NCBI GenBank assembly: GCA_964016885.1
Contig: OZ024755.1
Location: forward strand, 31,310,001 to 31,374,000
Length of the DNA stretch: 64,000 nt
Direction of reading: 5' to 3'
Source of the DNA: Eledone cirrhosa
Lineage: Eukaryota
Part shown: one piece after another, positions 4,196 through 50,260 of the stretch
How the letters are laid out: each line of letters begins with the position of its first letter
Numbering within the stretch: position 1 is the first letter of the stretch
Program-made: the position numbers and the translations under genes
Notes under the pieces: generated by a model
Told to the model about the DNA's origin: nothing
The model's database searches: none
Seen by the model: only the letters and a program-made list of their open reading frames with translations

Positions 4196-4614
4196 AGACA
4201 ATGTCACTGGACCGTGACCTTTGGCGGTACTCAGTAACAGAGAAGACCCGCCTTGCCAGTAGGCATCTCTAACAAACTACACCCCGTCCCGCCACCACCC
4301 ACACCCCATCCACACCACCCCGTTCTATGTAAAGTTATGTTGGTGCCGCGCCATCCAGGCCGAAACAAATGAGATCGTGTAGGTGTCACGACAAAAAAAC
4401 ACACAGTCCACGCTGTAATGTGGCCGTGTAGGCAACACGGTAAAAACCTCCCAGACCCACACTGTAAATGTGGTTGGTGTTAGGAAGGGCATCCAACTGT
4501 AGAAAACCTGCCAGACAGTCCTATGCGAGCAAGACAATCACTCTTGCCTCAAGTGGGACTACCCCCGTCCAAACCCATGCAAGCGTGGAACACGGACGTT
4601 AAACGTTGATGATG

Positions 4615-4616
<2 letters not shown>
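4196..4616 (+). mobile_element. 3' end of an RTE LINE (last ORF codons, 3' UTR, ATG-repeat tail)
   Basis: [20 protein letters not shown] followed by a UTR that is the near-identical reverse complement of 6890-7340 and 16777-17020. Ends GGACGTTAAACGTTGATGATGAT. Confidence 0.85.
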
Positions 4617-5979: not shown

Positions 5980-8392
5980 AACTATATCTACACTATATTC
6001 TATATTATATGTATATACTAATACTATATCTACACTATATTCTATATTATATGTATATACTATATCTAGACTATATTCTATATTATATGTATATACTATA
6101 TCTACACTATATTCTATATTATATGTATATACTATATCTACACTATATTCTATATTATATGTATATACTATATCTACACTATATTCTATATTATATGTAT
6201 ATACTATATCTACACTATATTCTATATTATATGTATATACTACATCTAGACTATATTCTATATTATATGTATATACTACATCTAGACTATATTCTATATT
6301 ATATGTATATACTATATCTACACTATATTCTATATTATATGTATATACTATATCTACACTATATTCTATATTATATGTATATACTATATTATACTATATT
6401 CTATATTATATGTATATACTACATCTAGACTATATTCTATATTATATGTATATACTATATCTACACTATATTCTATATTATATGTATATACTACATCTAG
6501 ACTATATTCTATATTATATGTATATACTACATCTAGACTATATTCTATATTATATGTATATACTACATCTACACTATATTCTATATTATATGTATATACT
6601 ATATCTACACTATATTCTATATTATATGTATATACTATATCTACACTATATGCTATATTATATGTATATACTATATCTACACTATATTCTATATTATATG
6701 TATATACTATATCTACACTATATTCTATATTATATGTATATACTATATCTACACTATATGCTATATTATATGTATATACTACATCTAGACTATATTCTAT
6801 ATTATATGTATATACTACATCCAGACTATATTCTATATTATATGTATATACTATATCTACACTATATTCTATATTATATGTATATACTATCATTATCATC
6901 ATCATCAACGTTTACCGTCCGTGTTCCACGCTTGCATGGGTTTGGACGGGGGTAGTCCCACTTGAGGCAAGAGTGATTGTCTTGCTCACATAGGACTGTC
7001 TGGCAGGTTTGCTACAGTTGGATGCCCTTCCTAACACCAACCACATTTACAGTGTGGGACTGGGAGGTTTTTACCGTGTTGCCTACACGGCCACATTACA
7101 GCGTGGACTGTGTGTTTTTTTGTCGTGACACCTACACGATCTCATTTGTTTCGGCCTGGATGGTGTGGCACCAACATAACTTTACATAGGTGGGGGTGGT
7201 GTGGATGGGGTGGGGGTGGTGGGACGGGGGTGTATTTTGTTAGAGATGCCTACTGGCTGTAGTAGGTTTTACTATGTATTTAGGTAAGGCGGGTCTTCTC
7301 TATTAGTGAGTACTGCCAAAGGTCTCGGTCCAGTGACATTGTCTTGGAGAGGTGTAAGTGTGTGAGGTCGGAGTTTATCAGCTCGTCCCAGGTTTTTCTA
7401 GGTCTGCCTATTCCGTGGCTACCGTCTATCTTTATTGCCCTGCACTTTGTTATACTGCTATCGACTTTCATGCACATCACGTGTCCATACCAACGTAGCC
7501 TTCTCTCGAGTAAACAACATCTGATCCCTCTTATTTCTAATTTTTTCCTTAGTTCGTTAATGCTTTGCCGTTCACGTATATTACTATTACACATCCAGCG
7601 GAGCATGCAAGCTTCGTTCCTCTCTAGTCTGCGTATATCCTCTGCACACAATGCCCAGGTCTCACTGCCATGCAACATTGCTGTTCGTATGCAGGTATCA
7701 TACAACCTGCCTTTCATTTTTAGGGAGAACCCTATACTACATCTAGACTATATTCTATATTATATGTATATACTATATCTACACTATATTCTATATTATA
7801 TGTATATACTATATCTACACTATATTCTATATTATATGTATATACTATATCTACACTATATTCTATATTATATGTATATACTATATCTACACTATATTCT
7901 ATATTATATGTATATACTATATCTACACTATATTCTATATTATATGTATATACTATATCTACACTATATTCTATATTATATGTATATACTATATCTACAC
8001 TATATTCTATATTATATGTATATACTATATCTACACTATATTCTATATTATATGTATATACTATATCTACACTATATTCTATATTATATGTATATACTAT
8101 ATCTACACTATATTCTCTATTATATGTATATACTATATCTACACTATATTCTATATTACATGTATATACTACATCTAGACTATATTCTATATTATATGTA
8201 TATACTATATCTACACTATATTCTATATTATATGTATATACTATATCTACACTATATTCTCTATTATATGTATATACTATATCTACACTATATTCTATAT
8301 TACATGTATATACTACATCTAGACTATATTCTATATTACATGTATATACTATATCTACACTATATTATATGTATATACTATATCTACACTAT
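5980..8392. repeat. 36-bp AT-rich minisatellite interrupted by an RTE insertion
   Basis: Unit TATATCTACACTATATTCTATATTATATGTATATAC on both sides of 6890-7732. Confidence 0.95.
6890..7732 (-). mobile_element. 5'-truncated RTE LINE (RT C-terminus and 3' UTR)
   Basis: ORF 7280-7717 KGRLYDTCIRTAMLHGSETW...RRLRWYGHVM...GRPRKTW. (CAT)n tail at 6890. Confidence 0.92.
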
Positions 8393-13764: not shown

Positions 13765-13887
13765 TATGTCAGAACAATTGCTCAGGACATGGAAAATGTG
13801 ACCGATACACAAAACAGTGTTTCTGTGAGGCATTTTGGATGCAGAATTTCATCCGTACAAAACTTTTTCATGGAGAAAACAACTGTG
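13765..13887 (+). CDS. KIAA0319L: KIAA0319-like exon, Cys-rich EGF-like juxtamembrane domain
   Basis: tcttacag|TA TGT...TGT G|gtaagt. Translates VCQNNCSGHGKCDRYTKQCFCEAFWMQNFIRTKLFHGENNC, matching the family C..CS.HG.CD..TK.C.C..FWM.N...G..NC signature. Confidence 0.95.
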
Positions 13888-13897
13888 GTAAGTAAAA

Positions 13898-14210
13898 ATG
13901 CTCTGTAAAGTGGTAGTGTTGGTGCCTCAATAAAATACACCCAGTACACTCTGTAAAGTGGTAGTGTTGGTGCTACAATGGAATACACCCAGTACACTCT
14001 GTAAAGTGGTAGTGTTGGTGCCTCAATAAAATACACCCAGTACACTCTGTAAAGTGTTAGTGTTGGTGCTACAATGGAATACACCCAGTACATTCTGTAA
14101 AGTGGTAGTGGTGGTGTCATGATAAAATACACTCTGTAAAGTGATAGTGTGGTGCCACAATAAAACACACCCAGTACACTCTGTAAAGTGATAGGGCTGG
14201 TACCATGATA
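13898..14210 (-). repeat. 48-bp minisatellite in reverse orientation, starting about 10 nt after the exon donor
   Basis: Reverse complement of the 1040 and 10305 unit. Confidence 0.9.
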
Positions 14211-14529
14211 ACATACCTCTATTATGCAATTAACACCTGAGGATGTCACCAGGTTCTTATGCAACCTGGCCACTGAAATGTGCATAGTGTTTGCAGAAAT
14301 AAATAATTAAGGAAATTCAACATATTTGACCTCCTGTCATTTCACTTTATAATACATTTACTCCGTTCCTGCACCACCAACATGATTCAATATGGACATA
14401 GAAGATGGATGAGTTGCATAACGTTGAGTGCTTTTCTCATATTACGTCATGGTTAACATTGCAGAATGACCAATTCTACCCAGTGGTAAACCACCAAATT
14501 TAAACGTGTGTATATATATATGTAATACA

Positions 14530-14856
14530 GAGTACCCGACCTCCCATGGGTACAAGCTGAAGCATATAGACAATATGCCCCCACACCCCCCACCGCAAGG
14601 TGGTCGTGGAGGTGCCACGGCAAAAAAGCACCCAGCCCACACTGTAAAGTGGACGTGTAGGCGCCACGAAAAAGCACCCAGCACTCACTGTAAATGAGGT
14701 TGGTGTTAGGAAGGGCATCCAGCTGTAGAAATCAAGTCAAGATCAGTTCCTGTATGAGCAAGGCATGGTCAGCCGACCAGACACTGCCCACAACAGGACA
14801 ACCCGTCTAACCCATGCTAGCGTGGAAGAACGGACGTAAAACGGTGATGATGATGA
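14530..14856 (+). mobile_element. RTE-related 3' UTR/SINE-like fragment
   Basis: AAAAAGCACCCAGCCCACACTGTAAAGTGG x2, GGAAGGGCATCCAGCTGTAGAAA, and tail GGACGTAAAACGGTGATGATGATG. Confidence 0.7.
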
Positions 14857-14877
14857 TATATATGTATATATATATAT

Positions 14878-15296
14878 ATGTAGGAGGTGAGTTTTATTGT
14901 AGTACAATAAAGCAATGCAGATATCGGATAATATCTTCCAACGGTTTTCAACCTCTCTATGTAAAACAATATATCTTTCTCAGTTATAAAAGCTATCTCT
15001 CTCTCTCTATCTCATCCTTCCTCATTATACTCCTCCCTCTCCACTTTTTACTCTCATCTCCTCCTCTTTCCCCCCCCCCCTCTAAATAAAATATTTTTCC
15101 CAATATCACACATCAATCTAAAACTACCTCTCATATGTTGATTTAAAACTGCACTATCCACAAGTGTTTTTTAACCTTCATATCATGTCTTCATGTTTTA
15201 TCTGATGAAAACACAAATATTATTGCATGATGATATTTGTTTTTGAAATGCGCATAATAAAATACATGGAACTCTTTTAACCATCTTTTGTTCTTA
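14878..15296 (+). mobile_element. Penelope-like terminal repeat copy 1 (internally deleted) with hammerhead
   Basis: Direct repeat of 17090-17787, lacking about 260 bp of it. Flanked by (TA)n. Confidence 0.7.
15191..15270 (+). ncRNA. Minimal type-I hammerhead ribozyme
   Basis: Stem I TTTTAT/ATAAAA. CTGATGA at 15202-15208. Stem II of about 14 bp. GAAA at 15245-15248, then palindromic TGCGCA and a UA cleavage site at 15255-15256. Confidence 0.78.
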
Positions 15297-15303
15297 TATA
15301 TAT

Positions 15304-15334
<31 letters not shown>

Positions 15335-15421
15335 TGGAAAACTAAATAACAACAACAAGTACAGTTACAAAAGATGTTAAGTATTAGGTTCACGCTTGAG
15401 AGTTGGATATATATATATATA

Positions 15422-16273
15422 CGAGGTATGTCAGAAAAGTTCCAGGACTGATGTCACAAAAGATTTATTTCAAACCCAAACTTTACACTAAGAGTTTTCT
15501 CCTTCAAAGTAATCCCCCTGGAGTATGTAACTAATCTTAGTTCTCTGCGACGATCAAACTTTTTTCTTCATAATTTTATATACATGTCCTCTGTTTCAGG
15601 TCGTCAAGCAATGAGCACAGAGCAACAAACAAACTTGAAAACTCTGTCAGAAGCACTGGCATTGCTGCAGCAAGTGGTGCAAGAGGTTTAAAGAAGGCCG
15701 CGAGGACGTGGAAGATGACCCCAGGAGCGGAAGGCCCTCAACAACCAGGACTGAGGTCAACATTGAGCGCGTCAGGCAGATGGTGTGTAGCGATCGTCGG
15801 CAGACTGTTCGACTGATGGCAAATGAGCTGGACATGAATCGGGACAGCGTCTGGAAGATTCTCACTGAAGATTTGGACATGCGGAAAGTCTGCGCGAAGA
15901 TGGTGCCAAAACTGCTGAACGATGACCAGAAGGGTCGACGCATGCAAGTGTGCCAGGACATCCTCGAACGTCTTGAAACCGAACCAGACTTGCTAGGGAC
16001 ACTCATCACCAGTGATGAGTCATGGATCTTCGAGTACGACCCGGAGGGGACCCGTTTTGAAGACGTGGATGACATCAAAACGGTGTGACGACGGAACTGC
16101 GGAGGATCCCGGAACAATCCTTCCAGGAGTGCATGCAAGCGTGGCAGAAAAGGATGGAAAAGTGCATTAGACTCCAGGGGGATTACTTTGAAGGAGGACA
16201 CTTTTAGTGTGAAGTTTGGGTTTGAAATAAACCTTTTGTGACATCAGTCCTGGAACTTTTCTGACCCACCTCG
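15422..16273 (+). mobile_element. Internally deleted non-autonomous mariner with about 70-bp TIRs and TA TSD
   Basis: TA|CGAGGTATGTCAGAAAAGTTCCAGGACTGATGTCACAAAAG...CTTTTGTGACATCAGTCCTGGAACTTTTCTGACCCACCTCG|TA. Transposase motifs EDDPRSGRP, KMVPKLL and ITSDESWIFEYDPE. Confidence 0.95.
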
Positions 16274-16414
16274 TATATATTCATTAAAATATGTTACTAA
16301 ACACTTATTTACATCATAATTTGAACAAAAATTCCGTAGATTTTTGTTTACATTTTACACAAATGTAAACAAAAGTTTTTGTGTGTTCGAAAAGATGAAC
16401 TTGTTGAAGTATTT

Positions 16415-16577
16415 ATCGATTAAATCGACCCCAGTGTGTATTTTATTTTATCGACCCTGTAAGGATGAAAGGCAAAGTTTACCTCGGCGGGATTTGAACT
16501 CAAATCATAAAGGGCCGTAACTCTATGCTGCAAAGCATGGCGTCCGACCCTCTACCAATACTGCCAATCTACTGCCC
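16415..16577 (-). mobile_element. tRNA-derived SINE (family A)
   Basis: ATCGACCCTGTAAGGATGAAAGGCAAAG...GATTTGAACTC...ACTGCCAATCTACTGCC. Confidence 0.8.
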
Positions 16578-16776
16578 TGCTCCACATGAAATAATCTGAC
16601 ACAGTGGGAGTTCATATAAATGTTTTTTTAAAATATTATATGTAGTATTGTGCACAGTTTATTGTAATAAATTACCGTATTTTGAGCTGATGTATCTTTT
16701 TCACCTACACCTTTCCAGTCTTTATATTTGAAAATAAATTTCTTTATATGTATGTATGTGTGTGTGTATATATATA

Positions 16777-17020
16777 TCATCATCATCATCATCATCATCA
16801 ACGTTTAACGTCCGTGTTCCACGCTTGCATGGGTTTGGACGGGGGTAGTCCCACTTGAGGCAAGAGTGATTGTCTTGCTCGCATAGGACTGTCTGGCAGG
16901 TTTTCTACAGTTGGATGCCCTTCCTAACACCAACCACATTTACAGTGTGGGTCTGGGAGGTTTTTGCCGTGTTGCCTACACGGCCACATTACAGCGTGGA
17001 CTGTGTGTTTTTTTGTCGTG
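16777..17020 (-). mobile_element. RTE 3' UTR fragment with (CAT)n tail
   Basis: Near-identical to 6890-7128. Confidence 0.85.
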
Positions 17021-17089
17021 ATTTATATATATATATAACCCATGCAAACATGGACAATAAACATTAAATACTGATGAAGATATATATAT

Positions 17090-17787
17090 ATGTAGGAGGT
17101 GAGTTTTATTGTAGTACAATAAAGCAATGCAAATATCGGATAAGTAGCACTCTTACATTACATAAAAACAAACTTAAACACTAAATAATTCCTCTAAATT
17201 CATAACTCATCCACTCTTCTACTTCGTTTCACAGTATATCCTTAATAACATTAATATTTTTATTTTAATAATACATATTAACAATTTCTTTTCCTCGCAC
17301 ATATTATTAAACCCTTCAATATACAAACCTTAATTTAATATTATTCTTAACCCCCCTTTTTCTCTTCATCAACTTTTAATTTCAAATTCTTTTAACTTAT
17401 CTATTATCTTCCAACGGCTTTTTAACTTCTCTCTGTGAGACAGTATATATTTTTCTCAGTTGTAAAGGCTATCTCTCTCTCTCTATCACCCATCTCTCCT
17501 CCTCTCTCATCCTTCCTTCTTATACTCCTCCCCCACCATTATCTACTTTCATCTCCTCCTCTTTCTCCCCCCCCCCCCCCTCCTCACTTTTTCCCAATAT
17601 CACACACCAATCTTAAATTATTTTTCATATGTTGATTTAAAACTTCACTATTCACAAGTGTTTTTTAACCTTCATATCATGTATCCCTATTTTATCTGAT
17701 GAAAACGCAAATATCATCTCATGATATTTGTTTTTGAAATGCGCATAATAAAATACTTGGAACTCTTTTAACCATCTTTTGATCTTA
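17090..17787 (+). mobile_element. Penelope-like terminal repeat copy 2 with hammerhead
   Basis: Starts TGTAGGAGGTGAGTTTTATTGTAGTAC and ends GGAACTCTTTTAACCATCTTTTG, as in 14878-15296. Confidence 0.7.
17688..17755 (+). ncRNA. Minimal type-I hammerhead ribozyme
   Basis: Stem I TATTTTAT/ATAAAATA. CTGATGA at 17696-17702. Stem II AAACGCAAATATCA/TGATATTTGTTTTT. GAAA at 17736, then TGCGCA and TA at 17746-17747. Confidence 0.8.
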
Positions 17788-17834
17788 TATTATATATATA
17801 TATATATATTTCTCTATATATTTTCTCTCAATAG

Positions 17835-18020
17835 ATTGGAGTATCCTGTATGTGGTTATTGTGTGTTTCTTGATCGTAGTTGGTATTGCAGGATTTGCTT
17901 GGCTCTCCTGCTGCATATGGAAAAGAAGACTATGTCGATGGAGGACTAGAAAACGGCCAAAATACGCTCTACTTTCACAGAATGATAGCGTTAAAGAAAA
18001 TTTTAAAATGGTAACTAAAA
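17835..18020 (+). CDS. KIAA0319L: KIAA0319-like exon, transmembrane helix and basic cytoplasmic segment
   Basis: ctcaatag|AT TGG...AAA A|gtgagt. Translates DWSILYVVIVCFLIVVGIAGFAWLSCCIWKRRLCRWRTRKRPKYALLSQNDSVKENFKMVTK, with the family WS.LYV and KY.LL motifs. Phase 1 to 1. Confidence 0.93.
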
Positions 18021-18599
18021 GTGAGTGAGATTCTTTTTTTTTTTTCTGTCCCAAACATCATCATCATAACTTTCTACCCTTTACTGAGCCCACTGGGTGC
18101 TTTTTGTCATGGTACCAGCACTACCAGCTTCCAGGATCGGCTGGGTGCATTTTATTGTGGCACCAGCATGACTGCCTTACACTAGGGTACAAATTGTCTC
18201 CAGGCTAGAGAGGATTGAAAGACAAGGGAGCATCAGGTGGTAGAGGGGTCCTTGAAGAGGGTGAGATGTATTAGTATATTGTGAAGTGTGTCTTTCTCTC
18301 TCCATACTAGCATGGGTTGTACAAGGGAGGGGAATTGAGGATGTAGGTAGAGGTAGGGATCACATCTTTCTTCAATGTTGGCATGGGTTGAGGAAGAGGG
18401 GTGAGGGATGTGAGTAGAAGAGAACATTGAAGAGAGAAGATAGGAGAGATGTGAATAGTTCATGGAGGGAGAAGGTTGGGTGAGAGTGGAAAGTATGTTC
18501 ATAGGTAAAATCCTAAATAATGTTTCATCTTCCTGCTGACCTGCATAGAGTAAGTCTTCTGTCGTACAACAAATCACCATTGAACTCAATCTTAACATG

Positions 18600-18959: not shown

Positions 18960-19070
18960 GAAGTATTACAGGACGTTTACCCAGGGTACCATGAAATGTG
19001 ACTGAACCACAAAATATGTACTTGGAAAGTGAACTCCTGTACCACCACCTTAACCACACAGCCATGTCTG
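18960..19070 (-). mobile_element. Degenerate tRNA-derived SINE head that seeds the adjacent satellite
   Basis: Minus strand ACAGACATGGCTGTGTGGTTAAG (A box)...GAGTTCACTTTCCAAG...TGGTTCAGTCAC (B-box-like)...GGTACCCTGGGTAAACGTC. Confidence 0.6.
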
Positions 19071-22000
19071 TACCACCACCTTAACCACACAGCCATGTCT
19101 GTACCACCACCTTAACCCCACAGCCATGTCTGTACCATCTTAACCACACAGCCATGTCTGTACCACCACCTTAACCACACAGCCATTTCTGTACCACCTT
19201 AACCACACAGCCATGTCTGTACCACCTTAACCACACAGCCATGTCTGTACCACCACCTTAACCACACAGCCATGTCTGTACCACCTTAACCCCACAGCCA
19301 TGTCTGTACCACCTTAACCATACAGCCATGTCTGTACCACCTTAACCACACAACCATGTCTGTACCACCTTAACTACACAGCCATGTCTGTACCACCACC
19401 TTAACCACACAGCCATGTCTGTACCACCTTAACCCCACAGCCATGTCTGTACCACCTTAACCATACAGCCATGTCTGTACCACCTTAACCACACAGCCAT
19501 GTCTGTACCACCTTAACTACACAGCCATGTCTGTACCTCCACCTTAACCACACAGCCATGTCTGTATCACCTTAACCACACAGCCATGTCTGTACCACCT
19601 TGACCACACAGCCATGTCTGTACCTCCACCTTAACCACACAGCCATGTTTGTACCACCACCTTAACCACACAGTGTCTGTACCACCACCTTAACCACACA
19701 GCCATGTCTGTACCACCACCTTAACCACACAGCCATGTCTGTACCACCACCTTAACCACACAGCCTTGTCTGTACCACCTTAACCCCACAGCCATGTCTG
19801 TACCACCTTAACCACACAGCCATGTCTGTACCACCTTAACTACACAGCCATGTCTGTACCTCCACCTTAACCACACAGCCATGTCTGTACCACCTTAACC
19901 ATACAGCCATGTCTGTACCACCTTAACCACACAGCCATGTCTGTACCACCACCTTAACCACACAGACATGTCTGTACCACCTTAACCCCACAGCCATGTC
20001 TGTACCACCTTAACCACACAGCCATGTCTGTACCACCTTAACTACATAGCCATGTATGTACCACCTTAACCACACAGCCATGTCTCTATCACCTTAACCA
20101 CACAGCCATGTCTGTACCACCTTAACCACACAGCCATGTCTATACCACCTTAACCACACAGCCATGTCTGTACCTCCACCTTAACCACACAGCCATGTCT
20201 GTACCACCACCTTAACCACACAGTGTCTGTACCACCACCTTAACCACACAGCCATGTCTGTACCACCACCTTAACCACACAGCCATGTCTGTACCTCCAC
20301 CTTAACCATACAGCCATGTCTGTACCTCCACCTTAACCACACAGCCATGTCTGTATCACCTTAACCACACAGTCATGTCTGTACCACCTTAACCACACAG
20401 CCATGTCTGTACCACCACCTTAACCACACAGCCATGTCTGTACCACCTTAACCACACAGCCATGTCTGTAACCCCTTAACCCCACAGCCATGTCTGTACC
20501 ACCTTAACCCCACAGCCATGTCTGTACCACCTTAACCACACAGCCATGTCTGTAACACCTTAACCCCACAGCCATGTCTGTACCACCTTAACCACACAGC
20601 CATGTCTGTACCTCCACCTTAACGACACAGCCATGTCTGTACCACCTTAACCACACAGCCATGTCTGTACCACCTTAACCACACAGCCATGTCTGTACCA
20701 CCACCTTAACCACACAGCCATCTCTGTACCACCTTAACCACACAGCCATCTCTGTACCACCTTAACCACACAGCCATCTCTGTACCACCTTAACCACACA
20801 GCCATGTCTGTACCACCTTAACCACACAGCCATGTCTGTACCACCTTAACCACACAGCCATGTCTGTACCACCACCTTAACCCCACAGCCATGTCTGTAC
20901 CTCCACCTTAACCCCACAGCCATGTCTGTAACACCTTAACCACACAGCCATGTCTGTACCACCACCTTAACCACACAGCTATGTCTGTACCACCTTAACC
21001 ACACAGCCATGTCTGTACCACCACCTTAACCACACAGCCATGTCTGTACCCCCCACCTTAACAACACAGCCATGTCTGTACCACCACCTTAACAACACAG
21101 CCATGTCTGTATCACCTTAACCACACAGCCATGTCTGTACCACCACCTTAACAACACAGCCATGTCTGTACCACCTTAACCACACAGCCATGTCTGTACC
21201 ACCACCTTATCCACACAGCCATGTCTGTACCACCTTAACCCCACAGCCATGTCTGTACCACCTCCTTAACCACACAGCCATGTCTGTACCACCTTAACCA
21301 CACAGCCATGTCTGTACCACCACCTTAACCACACAGCCATGTCTGTACCACCTTAACCACACAGCCATGTCTGTACCACCTTAACCATACAGCCATGTCT
21401 ATACCACCACCTTAACCACACAGCCATGTCTATACCACCACCTTAACCACACAGCCATGTCTGTACCACCACCTTAACCACACAGCCATGTCTGTACCAC
21501 CACCTTAACCACACAGCCATGTCTGTACCATCTTAACCACACAGCCATGTCTGTACCCCCCACCTTAACCACACAGCTATGTCTGTACCACCTTAACCAC
21601 ACAGCCATGTCTGTACCACCACCTTAACCACTCAGCCATGTCTGTACCACCTTAACCACAGAGCCATGTCAGTACCACCACCTTAACCACACAGCCATGT
21701 CTGTACCACCTTAACCCCACAGCCATGTCTGTACCACCTCCTTAACCACACAGCCATGTCTGTACCACCTCCTTAACCACACAGCCATGTCTGTACCACC
21801 TTAACCATACAGCCATATCTGTACCACCTTAACCACACAACCATGTCTGTACCACCACCTTAACCACACAGCCATGTCTGTACCACCACCTTAACCCCAC
21901 AGCCATGTCTGTACCACCTTAACCACACAGCCATGTCTGTACCACCACCTTAACCACACAGCCATGTCTGTACCACCTTAACCACACAGCCATGTCTGTA

Positions 22001-25000
22001 CCACCACCTTAACCACACAGCCATGTCTGTACCACCACCTTAACCACACAGCCATGTCTGTACCATCACCTTAACCACACAGCCATGTCTGTACCACCTT
22101 AACCCCACAGCCATGTCTGTATCACCTTAACCACACAGCCATGTCTGTACCACCACCTTAACAACACAGCCATGTCTGTATCACCTTAACCACACAGCCA
22201 TGTCTGTACCACCACCTTAACCACACAGCCATGTCTGTACCACCACCTTATCCACACAGCCATGTCTGTACCACCTTAACCCCACAGCCATGTCTGTACC
22301 ACCTCCTTAACCACACAGCCATGTCTGTACCACCACCTTAACCACACAGCCATGTCTGTACCACCACCTTATCCACACAGCCATGTCTGTACCACCTTAA
22401 CCCCACAGCCATGTCTGTACCACAACCTTAACCACACAGCCATGTCTGTACCACCTTAACCACACAGCCATGTCTGTACCACCTTAACCACACAGCCATG
22501 TCTGTACCACCTTAACCACACAGCCATGTCTGTACCACCTTAATCACACAGCCATATCTGTACCACCACCTTAACCACACAGCTATGTCTGTACCACCAC
22601 CTTAACCACACAGCCATGTCTGTACCACCACCTTAACCACACAGCCATGTCTGTACCACCACCTTAACCACACAGCCATGTCTGTACCATCTTAACCACA
22701 CAGCCATGTCTGTACCCCCCACCTTAACCACACAGCTATGTCTGTACCACCTTAACCACACAGCCATGTCTGTACCACCACCTTAACCACTCAGCCATGT
22801 CTGTACCACCTTAACCACAGAGCCATGTCAGTACCACCACCTTAACCACACAGCCATGTCTGTACCACCTTAACCCCACAGCCATGTCTGTACCACCTCC
22901 TTAACCACACAGCCATGTCTGTACCACCTTAACCATACAGCCATATCTGTACCACCTTAACCACACAGCCATGTCTGTACCACCACCTTAACCACACAGC
23001 CATGTCTGTACCACCTTAACCACACAGCCATGTCTGTACCACCTTAACCACACAGCCATGTCTGTACCACCTTAACCACACAGCCATGTCTGTACCACCT
23101 TAACCATACAGCCATGTCTATACCACCACCTTAACCACACAGCCATGTCTATACCACCACCTTAACCACACAGCCATGTCTGTACCACCACCTTAACCAC
23201 ACAGCCATGTCTGTACCACCACCTTAACCACACAGCCATGTCTGTACCATCTTAACCACACAGCCATGTCTGTACCCCCCACCTTAACCACACAGCTATG
23301 TCTGTACCACCTTAACCACACAGCCATGTCTGTACCACCACCTTAACCACTCAGCCATGTCTGTACCACCTTAACCACAGAGCCATGTCAGTACCACCAC
23401 CTTAACCACACAGCCATGTCTGTACCACCTTAACCCCACAGCCATGTCTGTACCACCTCCTTAACCACACAGCCATGTCTGTACCACCTCCTTAACCACA
23501 CAGCCATGTCTGTACCACCTTAACCATACAGCCATATCTGTACCACCTTAACCACACAACCATGTCTGTACCACCACCTTAACCACACAGCCATGTCTGT
23601 ACCACCACCTTAACCCCACAGCCATGTCTGTACCACCTTAACCACACAGCCATGTCTGTACCACCACCTTAACCACACAGCCATGTCTGTACCACCTTAA
23701 CCACACAGCCATGTCTGTACCACCACCTTAACCACACAGCCATGTCTGTACCACCACCTTAACCACACAGCCATGTCTGTACCATCACCTTAACCACACA
23801 GCCATGTCTGTACCACCTTAACCCCACAGCCATGTCTGTATCACCTTAACCACACAGCCATGTCTGTACCACCACCTTAACAACACAGCCATGTCTGTAT
23901 CACCTTAACCACACAGCCATGTCTGTACCACCACCTTAACCACACAGCCATGTCTGTACCACCACCTTATCCACACAGCCATGTCTGTACCACCTTAACC
24001 CCACAGCCATGTCTGTACCACCTCCTTAACCACACAGCCATGTCTGTACCACCACCTTAACCACACAGCCATGTCTGTACCACCACCTTATCCACACAGC
24101 CATGTCTGTACCACCTTAACCCCACAGCCATGTCTGTACCACAACCTTAACCACACAGCCATGTCTGTACCACCTTAACCACACAGCCATGTCTGTACCA
24201 CCTTAACCACACAGCCATGTCTGTACCACCTTAACCACACAGCCATGTCTGTACCACCTTAATCACACAGCCATATCTGTACCACCACCTTAACCACACA
24301 GCTATGTCTGTACCACCACCTTAACCACACAGCCATGTCTGTACCACCACCTTAACCACACAGCCATGTCTGTACCACCACCTTAACCACACAGCCATGT
24401 CTGTACCATCTTAACCACACAGCCATGTCTGTACCCCCCACCTTAACCACACAGCTATGTCTGTACCACCTTAACCACACAGCCATGTCTGTACCACCAC
24501 CTTAACCACTCAGCCATGTCTGTACCACCTTAACCACAGAGCCATGTCAGTACCACCACCTTAACCACACAGCCATGTCTGTACCACCTTAACCCCACAG
24601 CCATGTCTGTACCACCTCCTTAACCACACAGCCATGTCTGTACCACCTTAACCATACAGCCATATCTGTACCACCTTAACCACACAGCCATGTCTGTACC
24701 ACCACCTTAACCACACAGCCATGTCTGTACCACCTTAACCACACAGCCATGTCTGTACCACCTTAACCACACAGCCATGTCTGTACCACCTTAACCACAC
24801 AGCCATGTCTGTACCACCTTAACCACACAGCCATGTCTGTACCACCACCTTAACCACACAGCTATGTCTGTACCACCACCTTAACCACACAGCCATGTCT
24901 GTACCACCACCTTAACCACACAGCCATGTCTGTACCACCACCTTAACCCCACAGCCATGTCTGTACCACCTTAACCACACAGCCATGTCTGTACCACCAC

Positions 25001-28000
25001 CTTAACCACACAACCATGTCTGTACCACCACCTTAACCACACAGCCATGTCTGTACCACCACCTTAACCCCACAGCCATGTCTGTACCACCTTAACCACA
25101 CAGCCATGTCTGTACCACCACCTTAACCACACAGCCATGTCTGTACCACCACCTTAACAACACAGCCATGTCTGTACCACCTTAACCACACAGCCATGTC
25201 TGTACCACCACCTTAACCACACAGCCATGTCTGTACCACCTTAACCACACAGCCATGTCTGTACCACCTTAACCACACAGCCATCTCTGTACCACCTTAA
25301 CCACACAGCCATGTCTGTACCACCTTAACCACACAGCCATGTCTGTACCACCACCTTAACCACACAGCCATGTCTGTACCACCACCTTAACCACACAGCC
25401 ATGTCTGTACCACCACCTTAACAACACAGCCATGTCTGTACCACCTTAACCACACAGCGATGTCTGTACCACCACCTTAACCACACAGCCATGTCTGTAC
25501 CACCTTAACCACACAGCCATGTCTGTACCACCACCTTAACCACACAGCCATGTCTGTACCACCTTAACCACACAGCCATGTCTGTACCTCCACCTTAACC
25601 ACACAGCCATGTCTGTACCACCTTATCCACACAGCCATGTCTGTACCACCTTAACCCCACAGCCATGTCTGTACCACCTCCTTAACCACACAGCCATGTC
25701 TGTACCACCACCTTAACCACACAGCCATGTCTGTACCACCACCTTAACCACACAGCCATATCTGTACCACCTTAACCACACAGCCATGTCTGTACCACCT
25801 TAACCACACAGCCATGTCTGTACCACCACCTTAACCACACAGCCATGTCTGTACCACCTTAACCACACAGCCATGTCTGTACCACCTTAACCACACAGCC
25901 ATGTCTGTACCACCTTAACCACACAGCCATGTCTGTACCACCTTAACCACACAGCCATGTCTGTACCACCTTAACCACACAGCCATGTCTGTACCACCAC
26001 CTTAACCACACAGACATGTCTGTACCACCTTAACCCCACAGCCATGTCTGTACCACCTTAACCACACAGCCATGTCTGTACCACCTTAACTACATAGCCA
26101 TGTATGTACCACCTTAACCACACAGCCATGTCTCTATCACCTTAACCACACAGCCATGTCTGTACCACCTTAACCACACAGCCATGTCTATACCACCTTA
26201 ACCACACAGCCATGTCTGTACCTCCACCTTAACCACACAGCCATGTCTGTACCACCACCACCTTAACCACACAGTGTCTGTACCACCACCTTAACCACAC
26301 AGCCATGTCTGTACCACCACCTTAACCACACAGCCATGTCTGTACCTCCACCTTAACCATACAGCCATGTCTGTACCTCCACCTTAACCACACAGCCATG
26401 TCTGTATCACCTTAACCACACAGTCATGTCTGTACCACCTTAACCACACAGCCATGTCTGTACCACCACCTTAACCACACAGCCATGTCTGTACCACCTT
26501 AACCACACAGCCATGTCTGTAACCCCTTAACCCCACAGCCATGTCTGTACCACCTTAACCCCACAGCCATGTCTGTACCACCTTAACCACACAGCCATGT
26601 CTGTAACACCTTAACCCCACAGCCATGTCTGTACCACCTTAACCACACAGCCATGTCTGTACCTCCACCTTAACGACACAGCCATGTCTGTACCACCTTA
26701 ACCACACAGCCATGTCTGTACCACCTTAACCACACAGCCATGTCTGTACCACCACCTTAACCACACAGCCATCTCTGTACCACCTTAACCACACAGCCAT
26801 CTCTGTACCACCTTAACCACACAGCCATCTCTGTACCACCTTAACCACACAGCCATGTCTGTACCACCTTAACCACACAGCCATGTCTGTACCACCTTAA
26901 CCACACAGCCATGTCTGTACCACCACCTTAACCCCACAGCCATGTCTGTACCTCCACCTTAACCCCACAGCCATGTCTGTAACACCTTAACCACACAGCC
27001 ATGTCTGTACCACCACCTTAACCACACAGCTATGTCTGTACCACCTTAACCACACAGCCATGTCTGTACCACCACCTTAACCACACAGCCATGTCTGTAC
27101 CCCCCACCTTAACAACACAGCCATGTCTGTACCACCACCTTAACAACACAGCCATGTCTGTATCACCTTAACCACACAGCCATGTCTGTACCACCACCTT
27201 AACAACACAGCCATGTCTGTACCACCTTAACCACACAGCCATGTCTGTACCACCACCTTATCCACACAGCCATGTCTGTACCACCTTAACCCCACAGCCA
27301 TGTCTGTACCACCTCCTTAACCACACAGCCATGTCTGTACCACCTTAACCACACAGCCATGTCTGTACCACCACCTTAACCACACAGCCATGTCTGTACC
27401 ACCTTAACCACACAGCCATGTCTGTACCACCTTAACCATACAGCCATGTCTATACCACCACCTTAACCACACAGCCATGTCTATACCACCACCTTAACCA
27501 CACAGCCATGTCTGTACCACCACCTTAACCACACAGCCATGTCTGTACCACCACCTTAACCACACAGCCATGTCTGTACCATCTTAACCACACAGCCATG
27601 TCTGTACCCCCCACCTTAACCACACAGCTATGTCTGTACCACCTTAACCACACAGCCATGTCTGTACCACCACCTTAACCACTCAGCCATGTCTGTACCA
27701 CCTTAACCACAGAGCCATGTCAGTACCACCACCTTAACCACACAGCCATGTCTGTACCACCTTAACCCCACAGCCATGTCTGTACCACCTCCTTAACCAC
27801 ACAGCCATGTCTGTACCACCTCCTTAACCACACAGCCATGTCTGTACCACCTTAACCATACAGCCATATCTGTACCACCTTAACCACACAACCATGTCTG
27901 TACCACCACCTTAACCACACAGCCATGTCTGTACCACCACCTTAACCCCACAGCCATGTCTGTACCACCTTAACCACACAGCCATGTCTGTACCACCACC

Positions 28001-31000
28001 TTAACCACACAGCCATGTCTGTACCACCTTAACCACACAGCCATGTCTGTACCACCACCTTAACCACACAGCCATGTCTGTACCACCACCTTAACCACAC
28101 AGCCATGTCTGTACCATCACCTTAACCACACAGCCATGTCTGTACCACCTTAACCCCACAGCCATGTCTGTATCACCTTAACCACACAGCCATGTCTGTA
28201 CCACCACCTTAACAACACAGCCATGTCTGTATCACCTTAACCACACAGCCATGTCTGTACCACCACCTTAACCACACAGCCATGTCTGTACCACCACCTT
28301 ATCCACACAGCCATGTCTGTACCACCTTAACCCCACAGCCATGTCTGTACCACCTCCTTAACCACACAGCCATGTCTGTACCACCACCTTAACCACACAG
28401 CCATGTCTGTACCACCACCTTATCCACACAGCCATGTCTGTACCACCTTAACCCCACAGCCATGTCTGTACCACAACCTTAACCACACAGCCATGTCTGT
28501 ACCACCTTAACCACACAGCCATGTCTGTACCACCTTAACCACACAGCCATGTCTGTACCACCTTAACCACACAGCCATGTCTGTACCACCTTAATCACAC
28601 AGCCATATCTGTACCACCACCTTAACCACACAGCTATGTCTGTACCACCACCTTAACCACACAGCCATGTCTGTACCACCACCTTAACCACACAGCCATG
28701 TCTGTACCACCACCTTAACCACACAGCCATGTCTGTACCATCTTAACCACACAGCCATGTCTGTACCCCCCACCTTAACCACACAGCTATGTCTGTACCA
28801 CCTTAACCACACAGCCATGTCTGTACCACCACCTTAACCACTCAGCCATGTCTGTACCACCTTAACCACAGAGCCATGTCAGTACCACCACCTTAACCAC
28901 ACAGCCATGTCTGTACCACCTTAACCCCACAGCCATGTCTGTACCACCTCCTTAACCACACAGCCATGTCTGTACCACCTTAACCATACAGCCATATCTG
29001 TACCACCTTAACCACACAGCCATGTCTGTACCACCACCTTAACCACACAGCCATGTCTGTACCACCTTAACCACACAGCCATGTCTGTACCACCTTAACC
29101 ACACAGCCATGTCTGTACCACCTTAACCACACAGCCATGTCTGTACCACCTTAACCACACAGCCATGTCTGTACCACCACCTTAACCACACAGCTATGTC
29201 TGTACCACCACCTTAACCACACAGCCATGTCTGTACCACCACCTTAACCACACAGCCATGTCTGTACCACCACCTTAACCCCACAGCCATGTCTGTACCA
29301 CCTTAACCACACAGCCATGTCTGTACCACCACCTTAACCACACAACCATGTCTGTACCACCACCTTAACCACACAGCCATGTCTGTACCACCACCTTAAC
29401 CCCACAGCCATGTCTGTACCACCTTAACCACACAGCCATGTCTGTACCACCACCTTAACCACACAGCCATGTCTGTACCACCACCTTAACAACACAGCCA
29501 TGTCTGTACCACCTTAACCACACAGCCATGTCTGTACCACCACCTTAACCACACAGCCATGTCTGTACCACCTTAACCACACAGCCATGTCTGTACCACC
29601 TTAACCACACAGCCATCTCTGTACCACCTTAACCACACAGCCATGTCTGTACCACCTTAACCACACAGCCATGTCTGTACCACCACCTTAACCACACAGC
29701 CATGTCTGTACCACCACCTTAACCACACAGCCATGTCTGTACCACCACCTTAACAACACAGCCATGTCTGTACCACCTTAACCACACAGCGATGTCTGTA
29801 CCACCACCTTAACCACACAGCCATGTCTGTACCACCTTAACCACACAGCCATGTCTGTACCACCACCTTAACCACACAGCCATGTCTGTACCACCTTAAC
29901 CACACAGCCATGTCTGTACCTCCACCTTAACCACACAGCCATGTCTGTACCACCTTATCCACACAGCCATGTCTGTACCACCTTAACCCCACAGCCATGT
30001 CTGTACCACCTCCTTAACCACACAGCCATGTCTGTACCACCACCTTAACCACACAGCCATGTCTGTACCACCACCTTAACCACACAGCCATATCTGTACC
30101 ACCTTAACCACACAGCCATGTCTGTACCACCTTAACCACACAGCCATGTCTGTACCACCACCTTAACCACACAGCCATGTCTGTACCACCTTAACCACAC
30201 AGCCATGTCTGTACCACCTTAACCACACAGCCATGTCTGTACCACCTTAACCACACAGCCATGTCTGTACCACCTTAACCACACAGCCATGTCTGTACCA
30301 CCTTAACCATACAGCCATGTCTATACCACCACCTTAACCACACAGCCATGTCTGTACCACCACCTTAACCACACAGCCATGTCTGTACCACCACCTTAAC
30401 CACACAGCCATGTCTGTACCATCTTAACCACACAGCCATGTCTATACCACCACCTTAACCACACAGCCATGTCTATACCACCACCTTAACCACACAGCCA
30501 TGTCTGTACCACCACCTTAACCACACAGCCATGTCTGTACCACCACCTTAACCACACAGCTATGTCTGTACCACCTTAACCACACAGCCATGTCTGTACC
30601 ACCACCTTAACCACTCAGCCATGTCTGTACCACCTTAACCACAGAGCCATGTCAGTACCACCACCTTAACCACACAGCCATGTCTGTACCACCTTAACCC
30701 CACAGCCATGTCTGTACCACCTCCTTAACCACACAGCCATGTCTGTACCACCTCCTTAACCACACAGCCATGTCTGTACCACCTTAACCACACAGCCATA
30801 TCTGTACCACCTTAACCACACAACCATGTCTGTACCACCACCTTAACCACACAGCCATGTCTGTACCACCTTAACCACACAGCCATATCTGTACCACCTT
30901 AACCACACAACCATGTCTGTACCACCACCTTAACCACACAGCCATGTCTGTACCACCTTAACCACACAGCCATGTCTGTACCACCACCTTAACCACACAG

Positions 31001-31137
31001 CCATGTCTGTACCACCACCTTAACAACACAGCCATGTCTGTACCACCTTAACCACACAGCCATGTCTGTACCACCACCTTAACAACACAGCCATGTCTGT
31101 ACCACCTTAACCACACATCCATGTCTGTACCTCCTCC
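19037..31137. repeat. 12-kb intronic satellite of 28/31-bp units with higher-order structure
   Basis: Unit CTGTACCAC(CAC)CTTAACCACACAGCCATGT. Diagnostic variants recur at offsets of 1719, about 6050 and 4332 bp. Confidence 0.97.
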
Positions 31138-36247: not shown

Positions 36248-36720
<473 letters not shown>

Positions 36721-36721
36721 G

Positions 36722-38598
36722 TCAATGCAAATCAGGATGTTGTTGGGGATAAATGTGTCCGGGATGATGCCGGTGTACTTAGTGTCACGAATGATCAGAA
36801 AAAGGAGGCCTGGAAATGTCATTATGAGAGACTGATGAATGTGGAGAACAAATGGGAGAGAGAGAAATTGCCCTTGGTAGATCCGACAGAGGGACCAGCT
36901 ATTGAGATGGACAAATATAGGGTCCAAGAGGCGATTAGGGAAATGAAAAATGGTAAGGCTGCTGGACCATCGGGAATAGTTGCTGAGGTGCTGAAGGCAT
37001 CAGGGGACGTAGGCACTAAACTGGTTGCACGCATCATCAATCAGGCTATATATCGTGGTGTCATACCCAAAGACTGGTGCAGCAGTATTCTCATAAATTG
37101 CTACAAAGGTAAAGGGGATGCTTTGGAGAGGAGCAATTATAGGGGTATAAAACTGATAGATCAGGTTATGAAAGTGGCAGAAAGGATTTTAGCACAACTA
37201 ATTAGAGAAAGGGTCAAACTAGATGAGATGCAGTTTGGTTTTGTGCCTGGGAAGAGTACAACAGATGCCCTCTTCTTGGTGAGACAATTGCAAGAGAGGT
37301 TCTTAGAGAAGAATAAGCCACTATACTTAGCCTTTGTTGACCTAGAGAAGGCTTTGATAGGCTACCCCGATCTGTCATCTGGTGGTCCCTAAGGAAGCTG
37401 GGTGTTGAGGAATGGCTTGTGAGGACAGTGCAAACTTTGTACAGAGGTACTCTCAGTAAAGTCAGGGTAGGAATGGAGTTTAGTGAGGAATTTCAGATAC
37501 AAGTAGGAGTACATCAGGGTTCGGTCCTCAGCCCACTCTTGTTCATTATAGTCCTCCAAGCCATAACAGAGGAGTTTAAGACTGGCTGTCCATGGGAACT
37601 TCTCTATGCTGACGATCTGGTTCTTATAGCAGAATCAGTAGAGGAGCTAGAGAATAAATTCTGGCTATGGAAACAGCAGTTGGATGCAAGAGGACTGAGA
37701 GTGAATCTAGCTAAGACAAAAGTGTTGATGAGTAGAAAAGAGGACAAAACCCCGATTCCGTCAGGGAAATGGCCATGTTCGATATGCAGAAAAGGAACTG
37801 GCATAAATTCTATAAAATGCACACAATGCAGATCCTGGGTACACAAGAGATGTAGCGGGATAGCAGGCAAACTAACAGGTAGGGAGAAATATGTATGCAG
37901 TAGATGTACAGGGAAATTAGACAGTAGAAGTCGCATTGATAGACACATTTTTCAAATGCAGGAGGGCGCTATAGAAGTGGTGGATAGCTTCCGGTACCTA
38001 GGAGATCAGATTAGCATGGGAGGAGGGTGTTCCGAGGCCATAGTATCTAGAATAAGGACGGGTTGGAAGAAGTTTAGGGAGCTGCTTCCTCTGCTGACGA
38101 AGAAGGGTTTCTCCCTGCGTACGAAAGGCCGGTTGTATGATGCCTGTGTGAGGAGCGTGATGCTGCATGGTAGTGAGACATGGGCAACAACTGCAGAGGA
38201 TATGCAACGGCTGGAGAGAAATGAGGCAAGCATGCTCCGTTGGATGTGCAGTGTAAATGTGCGTGAACGACCCAGCATAAATGTGTTGAGAGAGAAACTG
38301 TGTCTGAGAGGGATAGAATATAGTGGACGGGAGAGGCGACTGAGGTGGTATGGACATGTGATGCGCATGGAGGATGACCGATGGGTGAAGAAGTGCCAGG
38401 AATTGCCAGTTGAAGGAAGACGTGGTAGAGGTAGACCACGAAAAACATGGGCGGAGGTGGTGAGAACAGACCTCAGATCATTGAAGCTCATGGTGGAGAT
38501 GACGAAGGACCGTGACGAGTGGAGAGATGCTGAATAAGACCCGTCCCACCCTTGCAAGCAGGGAAAAGCGGACGTAAAATGATGATGATGATGATGAT
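36722..38598 (+). mobile_element. 5'-truncated RTE-clade LINE, near-intact RT with one frameshift
   Basis: ORFs 36835-37392 and 37419-38537 join across a 1-nt frameshift at KAF/DR (about 37355). Motifs NYRGIKL, GVHQGSVLSPLLF and YADD (37605). Tail GGACGTAAAATGATGATGATG. Confidence 0.95.
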
Positions 38599-38619
38599 TA
38601 TATATATATATATAAATAT

Positions 38620-38820
38620 ATATTCAGGTTTGAGGTTCACCACTGGATAGAGCTGGTCAATTCCGTATGGTCAATCTTAATGTAATAATATGGAGAGTAC
38701 TCAACGTAAAGCAGTTCAACCGTCTTTGTTTTTGTAGTTGGTGGTGCTAGTACGGAGTTAAATATTATAATGAAATGACAGGAGGCTGGACTTGTGTAAA
38801 TCCTTGAAAGGTTTATTATA
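38620..38820 (-). mobile_element. Interspersed repeat (probable Penelope-associated terminal sequence), inverted homolog of 14325-14510
   Basis: GGAGTTAAATATTATAATGAAATGACAGGAGG versus CTCCTGTCATTTCACTTTATAATACATTTACTCC. Both share GAGT(A/G)CT with CAACGT. Confidence 0.5.
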
Positions 38821-38899
38821 CTATGATCATTTAAATGACCGGGTTCCGTATGAATCCGGTGATATCATCAGGTATTCGAAATATAATAAGTGAATGTAA

Positions 38900-48806: not shown

Positions 48807-49599
48807 TAAAATAACAGATTAAAGTTTAAGCAAATAATCGCTGCTTTCACCCTTAACGAAAAACATTGCAACCGAAGGAAAACAGGAAGACGATACTTTG
48901 GTTCGTAGAGACGTTCCCTGGCAATGAACGGAAAAAAGCGAAGATAATACGTCGTTATGTGGAGCGTTGAGAACAATTACACGCAAAGGCAAAACCACAT
49001 TTATGGTATAACTGAAGTCGTAGACTAAAATTCTATTTAGGAAACCGAATGATTCTCGACTTCAGAGTTAAGAATAATGTAAATAAATTACAGAGGTTAT
49101 TGAAGTCAACAATAATTAAATATATACATACACGTATCCATATACGTACATACACATGCATACACGAAAACACCTACCAATGTATGCATATACACGCACG
49201 TACACAAAAACACGCGCACACATACAAAAACCCGCGCAACACCTGTACCTGTACACATACGAACGTATACACCAAATACGCATAAAAAAATATATTAAAA
49301 AAAATATATATATATGTGTGTGTGTTTGACGTGTATCCATATAATTATATAAACGTATATAAATATACACACATAAATACGTATATAACGCACGCACACA
49401 CATACCTACAGGTAAATACACATGTTTGCTAAACGTACGTCAAGCAAAACACAAAGTACACATATACACACCCTACATACATGCAAAACCGCATACACAC
49501 ACTAACGCAAAATACACGTATACACAAAACCATATACACATGTACCAGTATATATAATATATACACCTATAACAAATACAAGCAAAAATACGTACGAGA

Positions 49600-50260
49600 A
49601 AGTATATGTACGTTGAGATCATTTGGGGTGCCGTTGTCTTTCAAGTCCCATATTAGGTCCGCCAGCCTTGTGGAGTGTCTCTTGCTCCGGTCCTTGAAAG
49701 AGTTTGTGTAATTATACATCCTCGATTTAAAGGTCGTGGAAGTTGCGCCAATGTCGGTGCGCTCTGTGTTGTGCATGTTAACCACACATTTATATACTAG
49801 GCCCTTCGTTAGGCATCTTCCCTACAGGGGCCATTGTGTGCCCGCTCTGCAGTTGCATGTTCGGTCGTTATGTTGCTCATTTCCAACGCTCGGCCCTTGG
49901 TCTACCACGGCCCTCCCACGATTCTCTGGTTGTTGTTCTGTCGGTGCGGTGTCCTGTCCGCCCGGCATTCGATTACAGCGTCTTCCACAGGCATGGTGGT
50001 CGCTGCAGGGTCCAGAGTATAGTTGGAGACCCTGTCTGCAAGGGGCCCTCCGTTCCCGTGACCGTCAGTCGCCCGCCGCTGTTGACGGTCGAGTTTTCCC
50101 AACTTCACCGCGTTGGTTTTGACCGTGTAGTCTGCCATGTTAGGTGCGGTGGAGAAGAACTTCACCGTGTGGCGGTCGAATATCCTGTGGTACCTGCTCA
50201 ACGGCGGGAAGCACTTGTCCAACGCTCGGGGAAACAATTGTAACACACAATAAGTTGAGT
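49600..50260 (-). mobile_element. Penelope-like element fragment with GIY-YIG endonuclease
   Basis: ALDKCFPP..RYHRIFDRHTVK.FSTAPNM, then CNCR..CPL.G.CLTKGLVYKC...(D)IGATSTTFKSRMYN.TNSFK..KRHSTRLADLIWDLKD. Frameshifted. Confidence 0.85.

Follow-up and report, generated by a model that had tools for sequence, protein, structure and literature searches.

The window analyzed here, a 64,000-nt stretch of Eledone cirrhosa DNA (contig OZ024755.1, positions 31,310,001 to 31,374,000 of the forward strand), carries part of a KIAA0319-like gene and, within one of its introns, two hammerhead ribozyme motifs, each at the 3' end of one copy of a repeat. The host gene was recognized by a K319L-like PKD piece at 47-274 (Pfam, E=7e-6). 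Upon translation, an EGF-like exon joins a hydrophobic transmembrane (TM) exon in frame, and the intron between them holds both motifs. Coordinates are window positions.

13765..13887, + strand: EGF-like exon (translation, splice sites; Pfam EGF_2, E=2.3e-4)
13888..17834, + strand: host intron, 3,947 nt, GT..AG
17835..18020, + strand: TM exon (in-frame join to the EGF-like exon; contig of sequencing run X4)

Read-through from the EGF-like exon into the intron meets a stop after two codons. Two donor-like sites 10 nt apart follow the TM exon (18010-18021), and the second is the one used, as the X4 contig ends at 18020.

Two type-I hammerhead motifs in the intron

Both strands of the window were scanned for type-I hammerheads, for which the core, GAAA, NUH and three paired stems were required. 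Exactly two were found in the 64 kb, both on the + strand.

15194..15264, + strand: hammerhead 1; stem I 15194-15201/15257-15264, CUGAUGA 15202-15208, stem II 15209-15244, GAAA 15245-15248, palindrome 15248-15255, predicted cut after A15256 (AUA triplet), AATAAA 15256-15261 spanning the cut
17688..17755, + strand: hammerhead 2; stem I 17688-17695/17748-17755, CUGAUGA 17696-17702, stem II 17703-17735, GAAA 17736-17739, palindrome 17739-17746, predicted cut after A17747, AATAAA 17747-17752 spanning the cut

In each of them, CUGANGA, GAAA and NUH follow in order, the junction is opened at an 8-bp stem I, and the predicted cut lies after H17. The pattern occurred in none of 100 dinucleotide shuffles, and in 150 block-wise Markov windows with local matching, loose matches averaged 0.047 and strict matches 0 per window. 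These results agree with a first-pass annotation of the window, which had reported two intact type-I cores in sense orientation in the one intron between the EGF-like and TM exons, the second cleavage site lying less than 90 nt from the acceptor; we measured 87 nt from this site to the intron end. The check with Rfam models that it had suggested failed to detect either motif: no hammerhead family was among 71 matches, nor among 4 matches in a second search; stem II and loop III are outside the usual sizes. Metagenome contigs scanned with the hammerhead pattern gave 0 matches. Viral contigs contained 92 loci with a looser pattern, which we took as chance or unrelated.

Stem III of both hammerheads is the identical self-complementary 8-mer AUGCGCAU, from A15.1 to U16.1, which permits a double hammerhead. 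In both copies, stem II has 14-15 bp, interrupted by a C.U mismatch at position four; the pair at its base is A10.1-U11.1, and the bulged base after the core is absent. The earlier identification of the motifs as minimal, dimer-type and Penelope-like hammerheads with a palindromic stem III holds. Like the minimal hammerhead ribozymes of metazoan Penelope-like elements (PLEs; PMC4209133), they have the type-I topology, depend on dimers, occur as solitary copies in the thousands and combine a long helix II with palindromic positions 15.2-16.2 and with flanks that are U-rich and AU-rich. They depart from the consensus of that class in lacking the bulged base (H) after CUGANGA, as do 2 of the 44 alignment rows compared, and in having A-U in place of G10.1-C11.1, as do 3 of the 44; both are minority states in the published alignment and do not exclude membership. 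Furthermore, the helices are longer here (helix II, 14-15 bp; helix I, 8 bp), the palindrome has 8 nt, and the link to a PLE frame is putative.

The hammerheads of Hydra-clade PLEs (PMC8557442) resemble ours in their (TA)n targets, a location close to the 3' end, an A or U at the cleavage site and a 4-bp near-palindromic stem III. The repeats of the host have an octopus-like appearance. Hydra-1_oBim of Octopus bimaculoides, described in the same paper, likewise has A-U at the base of stem II, but the Hydra-1_Obim hammerhead differs in sequence from those analyzed here. Four motifs of the carrier repeat had 0 matches in the supplement of PMC8557442.

The carrier repeat and its family

The intron contains the following repeats, for which "SINE-like" (short interspersed nuclear element) and "mariner-like" are putative labels.

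14616..14876, + strand: SINE-like repeat, 77% alike over 271 nt to 16767-17020 in inverted orientation; the predicted pair encloses copy 1, not copy 2
14880..15296, + strand: repeat copy 1, ~417 nt, between (TA)n runs; without ~260 nt present in copy 2
15415..16280, + strand: mariner-like DNA transposon remnant, 110-nt terminal inverted repeats (94%); predicted pairing shortens the spacer
16767..17020, - strand: SINE-like repeat, inverted; 98-99.6% like copies at 4387-4616 and 6897-7127
17092..17787, + strand: repeat copy 2, ~696 nt, between (TA)n runs; 5' and 3' ends as copy 1; donor-like motif 17096-17103, acceptor-like AG 17459

The two copies are 88.6% identical (366 of 413 aligned columns). 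The first-pass annotation had placed each motif in a direct repeat. Indeed, repeat copies carry both motifs, but they are two separate copies, and between them lie the mariner-like remnant, two SINE-like pieces and ~370 nt that match nothing else in the window. Therefore, the copies are not the terminal repeats of a single element flanking its own body.

We also considered a single origin of the pair, either a tandem or pseudo-long terminal repeat (pseudo-LTR) insertion or an old local duplication, later split; the motifs would still be passengers. The copies are on the same strand and have the same ends, a SINE-like tail and (TA)n precede both, there is no third copy in the 64 kb, and PLEs tend to insert beside earlier copies (PMC6765202). 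We nevertheless regard this origin as unlikely, because the SINE-like tails are 71% alike (30/42) vs 89% for the elements, the ~370 nt have no second match and the copies are flanked by separate (TA)n runs. Moreover, a family member elsewhere keeps the 5' part joined to the ribozyme part (17126 to 17627, among the joints listed for run X1), and the fixed ends may thus be a family trait.

Excess conservation of the ribozyme region, which a domesticated ribozyme would show, was not found in this comparison, which is of low power with two copies: 62 of 67 positions are identical there and 304 of 346 elsewhere (Fisher p=0.40). At the divergence of the copies, a 19-nt core would remain identical with p=0.10.

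Contigs of 4 sequencing runs (23 runs were listed) were aligned to 14700-18030 at 85% likeness; three listed rows of raw reads, from reduced-representation DNA, were left aside. Runs X1 and X4 are from organism A, perhaps the source of the window (X4 from another sample), and X5 is from organism B; no run is on record as RNA. In X1, the summed depth was 1,083,441 on the hammerhead 1 bin vs 11.5 on the TM exon (~94,000-fold), 353,879 and 131,329 on the hammerhead 2 bins and 21,673-115,486 on the 5' half of copy 2. Summed contig depth is no copy number but roughly points to copies in the thousands or above. Allowing for a 1- to 31-fold overcount, it corresponds to ~105,000 to 3,400 copies, for which random placement in an assumed 2-3 Gb genome gives ~7,000 to 5 same-strand neighbors within 2.5 kb. 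Relative to the 5' half, the ribozyme was covered 10-50 times more deeply; both copies in the window share one 5' end. Among the joints listed, four X1 contigs contain a head-to-head inverted joint (15138/17626) of two ribozyme-bearing ends at a 6-nt palindrome. No site at which many ends pile up was among those listed, a feature that contigs cannot reveal.

In X5, the depth on the hammerhead bin was 379 vs 16.5 on the TM exon, the mariner- and SINE-like bins stayed high, and the TM exon of organism B differed at at least 9 places. The repeat family thus appears to have multiplied mainly in the lineage of organism A. Contigs bridging the two-copy site were not found among those of other organisms, and the missing single-copy cover over copy 2 in runs X5 and X6 was given no weight. 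The X4/X1 depth ratio was 0.002-0.003 for the hammerhead bins, 0.003 for the mariner-like bins and 0.04-0.15 for the SINE-like bins. The low ratio is a weak hint against abundant family RNA in the X4 library, whose type is not on record, and a poor measure of expression.

In both copies, the hammerhead lies within 40 nt of the 3' end and the insertion sites are (TA)n. Hydra-clade PLEs have the hammerhead close to the 3' end and (TA)n flanks as well (PMC8557442, supplement), and inverted head-to-head partners with 5' truncation have been described for PLEs (PMC8557442, PMC4209133). The 3' ribozyme, the (TA)n targets, the 3'-biased cover and the inverted partners make it likely that the repeat is the 3' end of a Penelope-like retroelement. 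We did not find this family described in the searchable literature on octopus and cephalopod hammerheads, in which PMC8557442 was the only relevant paper; PLE expansions in Octopus vulgaris have been reported without ribozymes in passages of PMC13282606.

Instead of a PLE end, the repeat could be a non-autonomous, retrozyme-like element with fixed ends, moved by PLEs, whose own RNA is processed by the hammerhead. In line with this, the copies have fixed ends, no open frame and a 5' part without a protein match, and internal-deletion variants exist. As in non-LTR retrozymes (PMC7229834), the repeat is non-coding, the hammerhead is of type I and a weak stem III is rescued by dimers. However, retrozymes are 170-400-nt tandem units with abundant circles, whereas the window has solitary 417- and 696-nt copies 2.5 kb apart, and its tandem-repeat list contains no such array. 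The long stem II and the lack of canonical loop 1-loop 2 contacts are unlike retrozyme hammerheads, and the low X4/X1 ratio, from libraries of unrecorded type, also speaks against this possibility. A degenerate string in the frames of 17085-17385, in the 5' part, which by eye resembles a GIY-YIG motif but is unconfirmed, would argue in the same direction. Altogether, a retrozyme-like element seems improbable to about the same degree as a single origin of the pair.

Several further features of these repeats were observed. The SINE-like copies at 16791-17020, 4387-4616 and 6897-7127 are 98-99.6% alike within 13 kb of the host gene, which indicates either recent activity or local copying. The inverted pairs 14616-14876/16767-17020 and 15415-15524/16171-16280 are predicted to form long duplexes and are candidate substrates for A-to-I editing. 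According to our own pattern, the only two strong donor-like motifs of the intron (14884-14891 and 17096-17103) are at the 5' ends of the repeat copies, with an acceptor-like AG further on in each copy (14983 and 17459); they recall the intron of Penelope pseudo-LTRs and are a possible source of cryptic splicing. Elsewhere in the window, the minus strand of 49570-49860 contains a putative PLE endonuclease remnant with a CxC-x5 linker like that of the Hydra clade (PMC8557442). The type-I scan found no hammerhead beside it. A protein search confirmed 0 of 10 candidate relatives of this remnant, Pfam and PHROGs gave no confirmed relative, and the 1 of 150 metagenome candidates that passed was a bacterial sugar-metabolism contig, which was rejected.

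Predicted folding and prospects of cleavage

Folding models were used to rank options and not to measure them, as they depend on where the folded stretch ends and leave out Mg2+, core tertiary contacts and pseudoknots. When the cores were trimmed to 10-nt flanks, the active double hammerhead was predicted at -34.6 kcal/mol, compared with -34.9 kcal/mol for the minimum free energy structure, and the active fraction of trimmed constructs was 1e-2 to 1e-1 in 6 settings (15, 25 and 37°C). In the fold of 15150-17834 at 20°C, the mariner-like inverted repeats paired and shortened the spacer, and the palindromes cross-paired with p ~0.99 as a nested cis dimer. The stems I of this dimer had p = 0 and ~0.1, and the predicted active fractions were 1.2e-2 for 15256, 4e-6 for 17747 and 5e-8 for both. 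Native flanks joined by an inert linker showed the same pattern in 12 of 12 settings at 15, 25 and 37°C, with active fractions of 7e-3 to 2e-4 for 15256, 3e-5 to 1e-7 for 17747 and 1e-7 to 1e-10 for the double cut. The stems I were lost with native flanks because a strand ~35 nt upstream of each core captured the 3' strand of stem I.

15161..15170, + strand: stem I-capturing strand of copy 1; predicted inactive helix with the 3' strand of stem I
17655..17664, + strand: stem I-blocking strand of copy 2; predicted pairing with 17750-17759

For the monomers, the predicted active fraction was at most 5e-5 in 6 of 6 contexts. In the whole-intron fold, the cross-pairing of the palindromes was gone and the inverted SINE-like pair enclosed copy 1 only. 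The dimer penalty of 169 kcal/mol in this fold reflects the no-pseudoknot rule and was not taken at face value.

According to the first-pass annotation, the two copies could dimerize in cis on one pre-mRNA and cut the intron. The dimer is compatible with the trimmed cores and with the pairing of the palindromes, but its stems I are displaced in native flanks. The proposed cutting is not supported, given the low predicted active fractions and the absence of cross-pairing in the whole-intron fold. The accompanying premise that minimal hammerheads cleave efficiently as dimers applies to dimers of the axolotl retrozyme (PMC7229834) but not to PLE minimal hammerheads, the cleavage of which is weak even in dimers and trimers (PMC4209133). 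Furthermore, of four triplets compared in one natural hammerhead (PMC1636495), AUA gave the slowest cleavage.

Nevertheless, a cis double hammerhead on the nascent pre-mRNA could cut the intron before splicing, chiefly at 15256, and lower the amount of full-length mRNA, similar to the attenuation described for CPEB3 (PMC10274809). Nothing in the cores, the palindromes or the swapped stems I is at odds with such a structure, and the cross-pairing, the 1.2% active core for 15256 and the spacer-shortening inverted repeats of the 15150-17834 fold would favor it. Against it stand the loss of cross-pairing in the whole-intron fold, the slow cleavage of PLE minimal hammerheads, the AUA triplet and the rare A10.1-U11.1 pair (3 of 44 rows in PMC4209133, with G-C as consensus). 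The dimer can form only once 17746 has been made, in the last 90 nt of the intron and 274 nt before the TM exon donor; at mammalian elongation rates of 3.5-4.1 kb/min (PMC10274809), which may differ from that of the host, 274 nt corresponds to a few seconds. In addition, introns cut by a hammerhead were reportedly still spliced, and only a fast hepatitis delta virus (HDV) ribozyme aborted splicing (cited in PMC2995048). There is also no sign of selection between the copies. The CPEB3 HDV-like ribozyme and the amniote intronic hammerheads likewise lie within introns in the sense orientation, ahead of a coding exon, but they are single-copy, conserved and active as monomers, whereas the hammerheads described here are part of a high-copy family, are not conserved above the rest of the repeat and depend on a partner. 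We therefore consider attenuation of the host mRNA quite unlikely. On the basis of the models, both hammerheads are predicted to be mostly inactive at the host locus and are probably inert; some low-level cutting is conceivable at 15256, which would most likely be the site of any residual cut.

Consequences for the transcript

Each predicted cut falls after the first A of the AATAAA that spans it and would remove this signal. Therefore, cleavage and polyadenylation at that signal are expected to be mutually exclusive in the parent element. Since hammerhead cleavage leaves a cyclic phosphate (PMC6765202) and the AAUAAA is split, a cut RNA would not receive a poly(A) tail at this site.

This bears on the two outcomes suggested in the first-pass annotation, excision or circularization of a 2.5-kb RNA by cuts at both sites, and a transcript ending before the TM exon that would yield a secreted ectodomain. 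Both sites are intact and, because of the stop two codons after the EGF-like exon, a polyadenylated RNA ending in the intron would encode a soluble protein. However, the state with both cores active had the fractions of 5e-8 and, with native flanks, 1e-7 to 1e-10 given above. The circle needs both cuts and is thus the least favored state, and it would be unlike retrozyme circles, which are 170-400 nt from tandem units (PMC7229834) and not 2.5 kb of mixed repeats. The joint of such a circle between the cut sites would be nearly identical to either copy and visible only by phasing a few letters. For the truncated transcript, the cut would leave a cyclic phosphate in place of a poly(A) tail. We consider these outcomes the least probable of all those weighed here.

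A 1,052-nt contig of run X4 covers 17834-18020 only, with 0 differences, and extends by 470 letters upstream and 395 letters downstream that are off the stretch. The ends of the aligned part coincide with the acceptor and with the donor at 18021, and the extra base matches the last base of the EGF-like exon. Because of these exact splice boundaries and the extra base, the contig is most likely spliced mRNA containing the TM exon, which also speaks against the truncated transcript.

A TM-less isoform could also arise without a ribozyme, by use of the acceptor-like AG at 14983 or 17459 and of the copy's AAUAAA; in this case, a hammerhead cut would oppose the secreted form. An in-frame tail of 52 or 58 residues and an AATAAA are present as required, but AATAAA occurs 13 times in the intron, the acceptor-like sites do not conform to an 8-pyrimidine pattern (nor does the true acceptor), and the X4 contig continues without a break over the 470 letters that precede the TM exon. 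Such an isoform is very unlikely in our view, only marginally less so than the double cut.

With a probability of about 75%, we therefore favor the explanation that the hammerheads are passengers, the 3' ends of two copies of a very abundant, likely Penelope-like repeat, which are removed with the intron. The two copies would have been inserted separately into (TA)n runs of the intron. In the parent element, the palindromic stem III would allow tandem copies to cut their own transcript as a double hammerhead, with the cut inside the element's own AAUAAA. In the host intron, the monomer fold would be out of reach, and a cis dimer would need to span 2.5 kb in competition with the inverted-repeat duplex and the local helix that captures stem I. 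As the TM exon would be complete 273 nt after the second site, commitment to splicing would probably win. A residual cut would lower the mRNA level or leave it unchanged and would give no new isoform.

Several points weigh against this explanation. All core bases and the palindrome are kept in both copies, and 3 of 3 stem substitutions between them preserve pairing. In the 15150-17834 fold, the palindromes cross-pair with p ~0.99, and ~1% of the cores that would cut at 15256 are predicted to be active; these active fractions are perhaps too low, as the models are without Mg2+, core contacts and the pseudoknot of the whole-intron fold. Moreover, CPEB3 is a precedent for the lowering of host mRNA by an intronic ribozyme (PMC10274809). 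The X4 evidence is from one sample that is not on record as RNA, contigs drop rare forms, and the 470 letters upstream of the TM exon are of unread content. Finally, the identical 5' ends of both copies are unlike random 5' truncation, and no link of the carrier repeat to a reverse transcriptase or GIY-YIG domain was found in Pfam, 1.84 billion proteins, a word search, PHROGs or the PDB.

A bolder version of the attenuation is slightly less probable still: the two decayed retroelement ends 2.5 kb apart might, with the aid of the transposon inverted repeats folding the spacer away, rebuild a cis double hammerhead that cuts the intron at 15256, tunes the mRNA and blocks intronic polyadenylation leading to a secreted ectodomain. 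If this were true, such pairs among the thousands of copies would represent a genome-wide, lineage-specific layer of intron cleavage.

The passenger explanation has little bearing on the host gene, but it enlarges a class known since 2014 by a repeat family that bears hammerheads, has a very high copy number and is apparently undescribed. Features of note are the cut inside the element's AAUAAA and the built-in upstream strand that can block stem I. If the cis dimer did cut, the locus would directly exemplify the action of transposon minimal hammerheads on a host pre-mRNA and would be relevant to the question of whether slow minimal hammerheads cleave in vivo. The two copies are distinguishable, making the locus convenient for testing in vivo cleavage.

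The remainder of the window contains two ~12-kb arrays at 19037-31131 and 52378-63999 (28/59-nt and 42-nt units) and a 48-nt minisatellite at 1062, 10303, 13901 and 50632 in both orientations. In addition, 36685-41180 contains long open frames that, by eye, are like non-LTR retrotransposon reverse transcriptases of two kinds.

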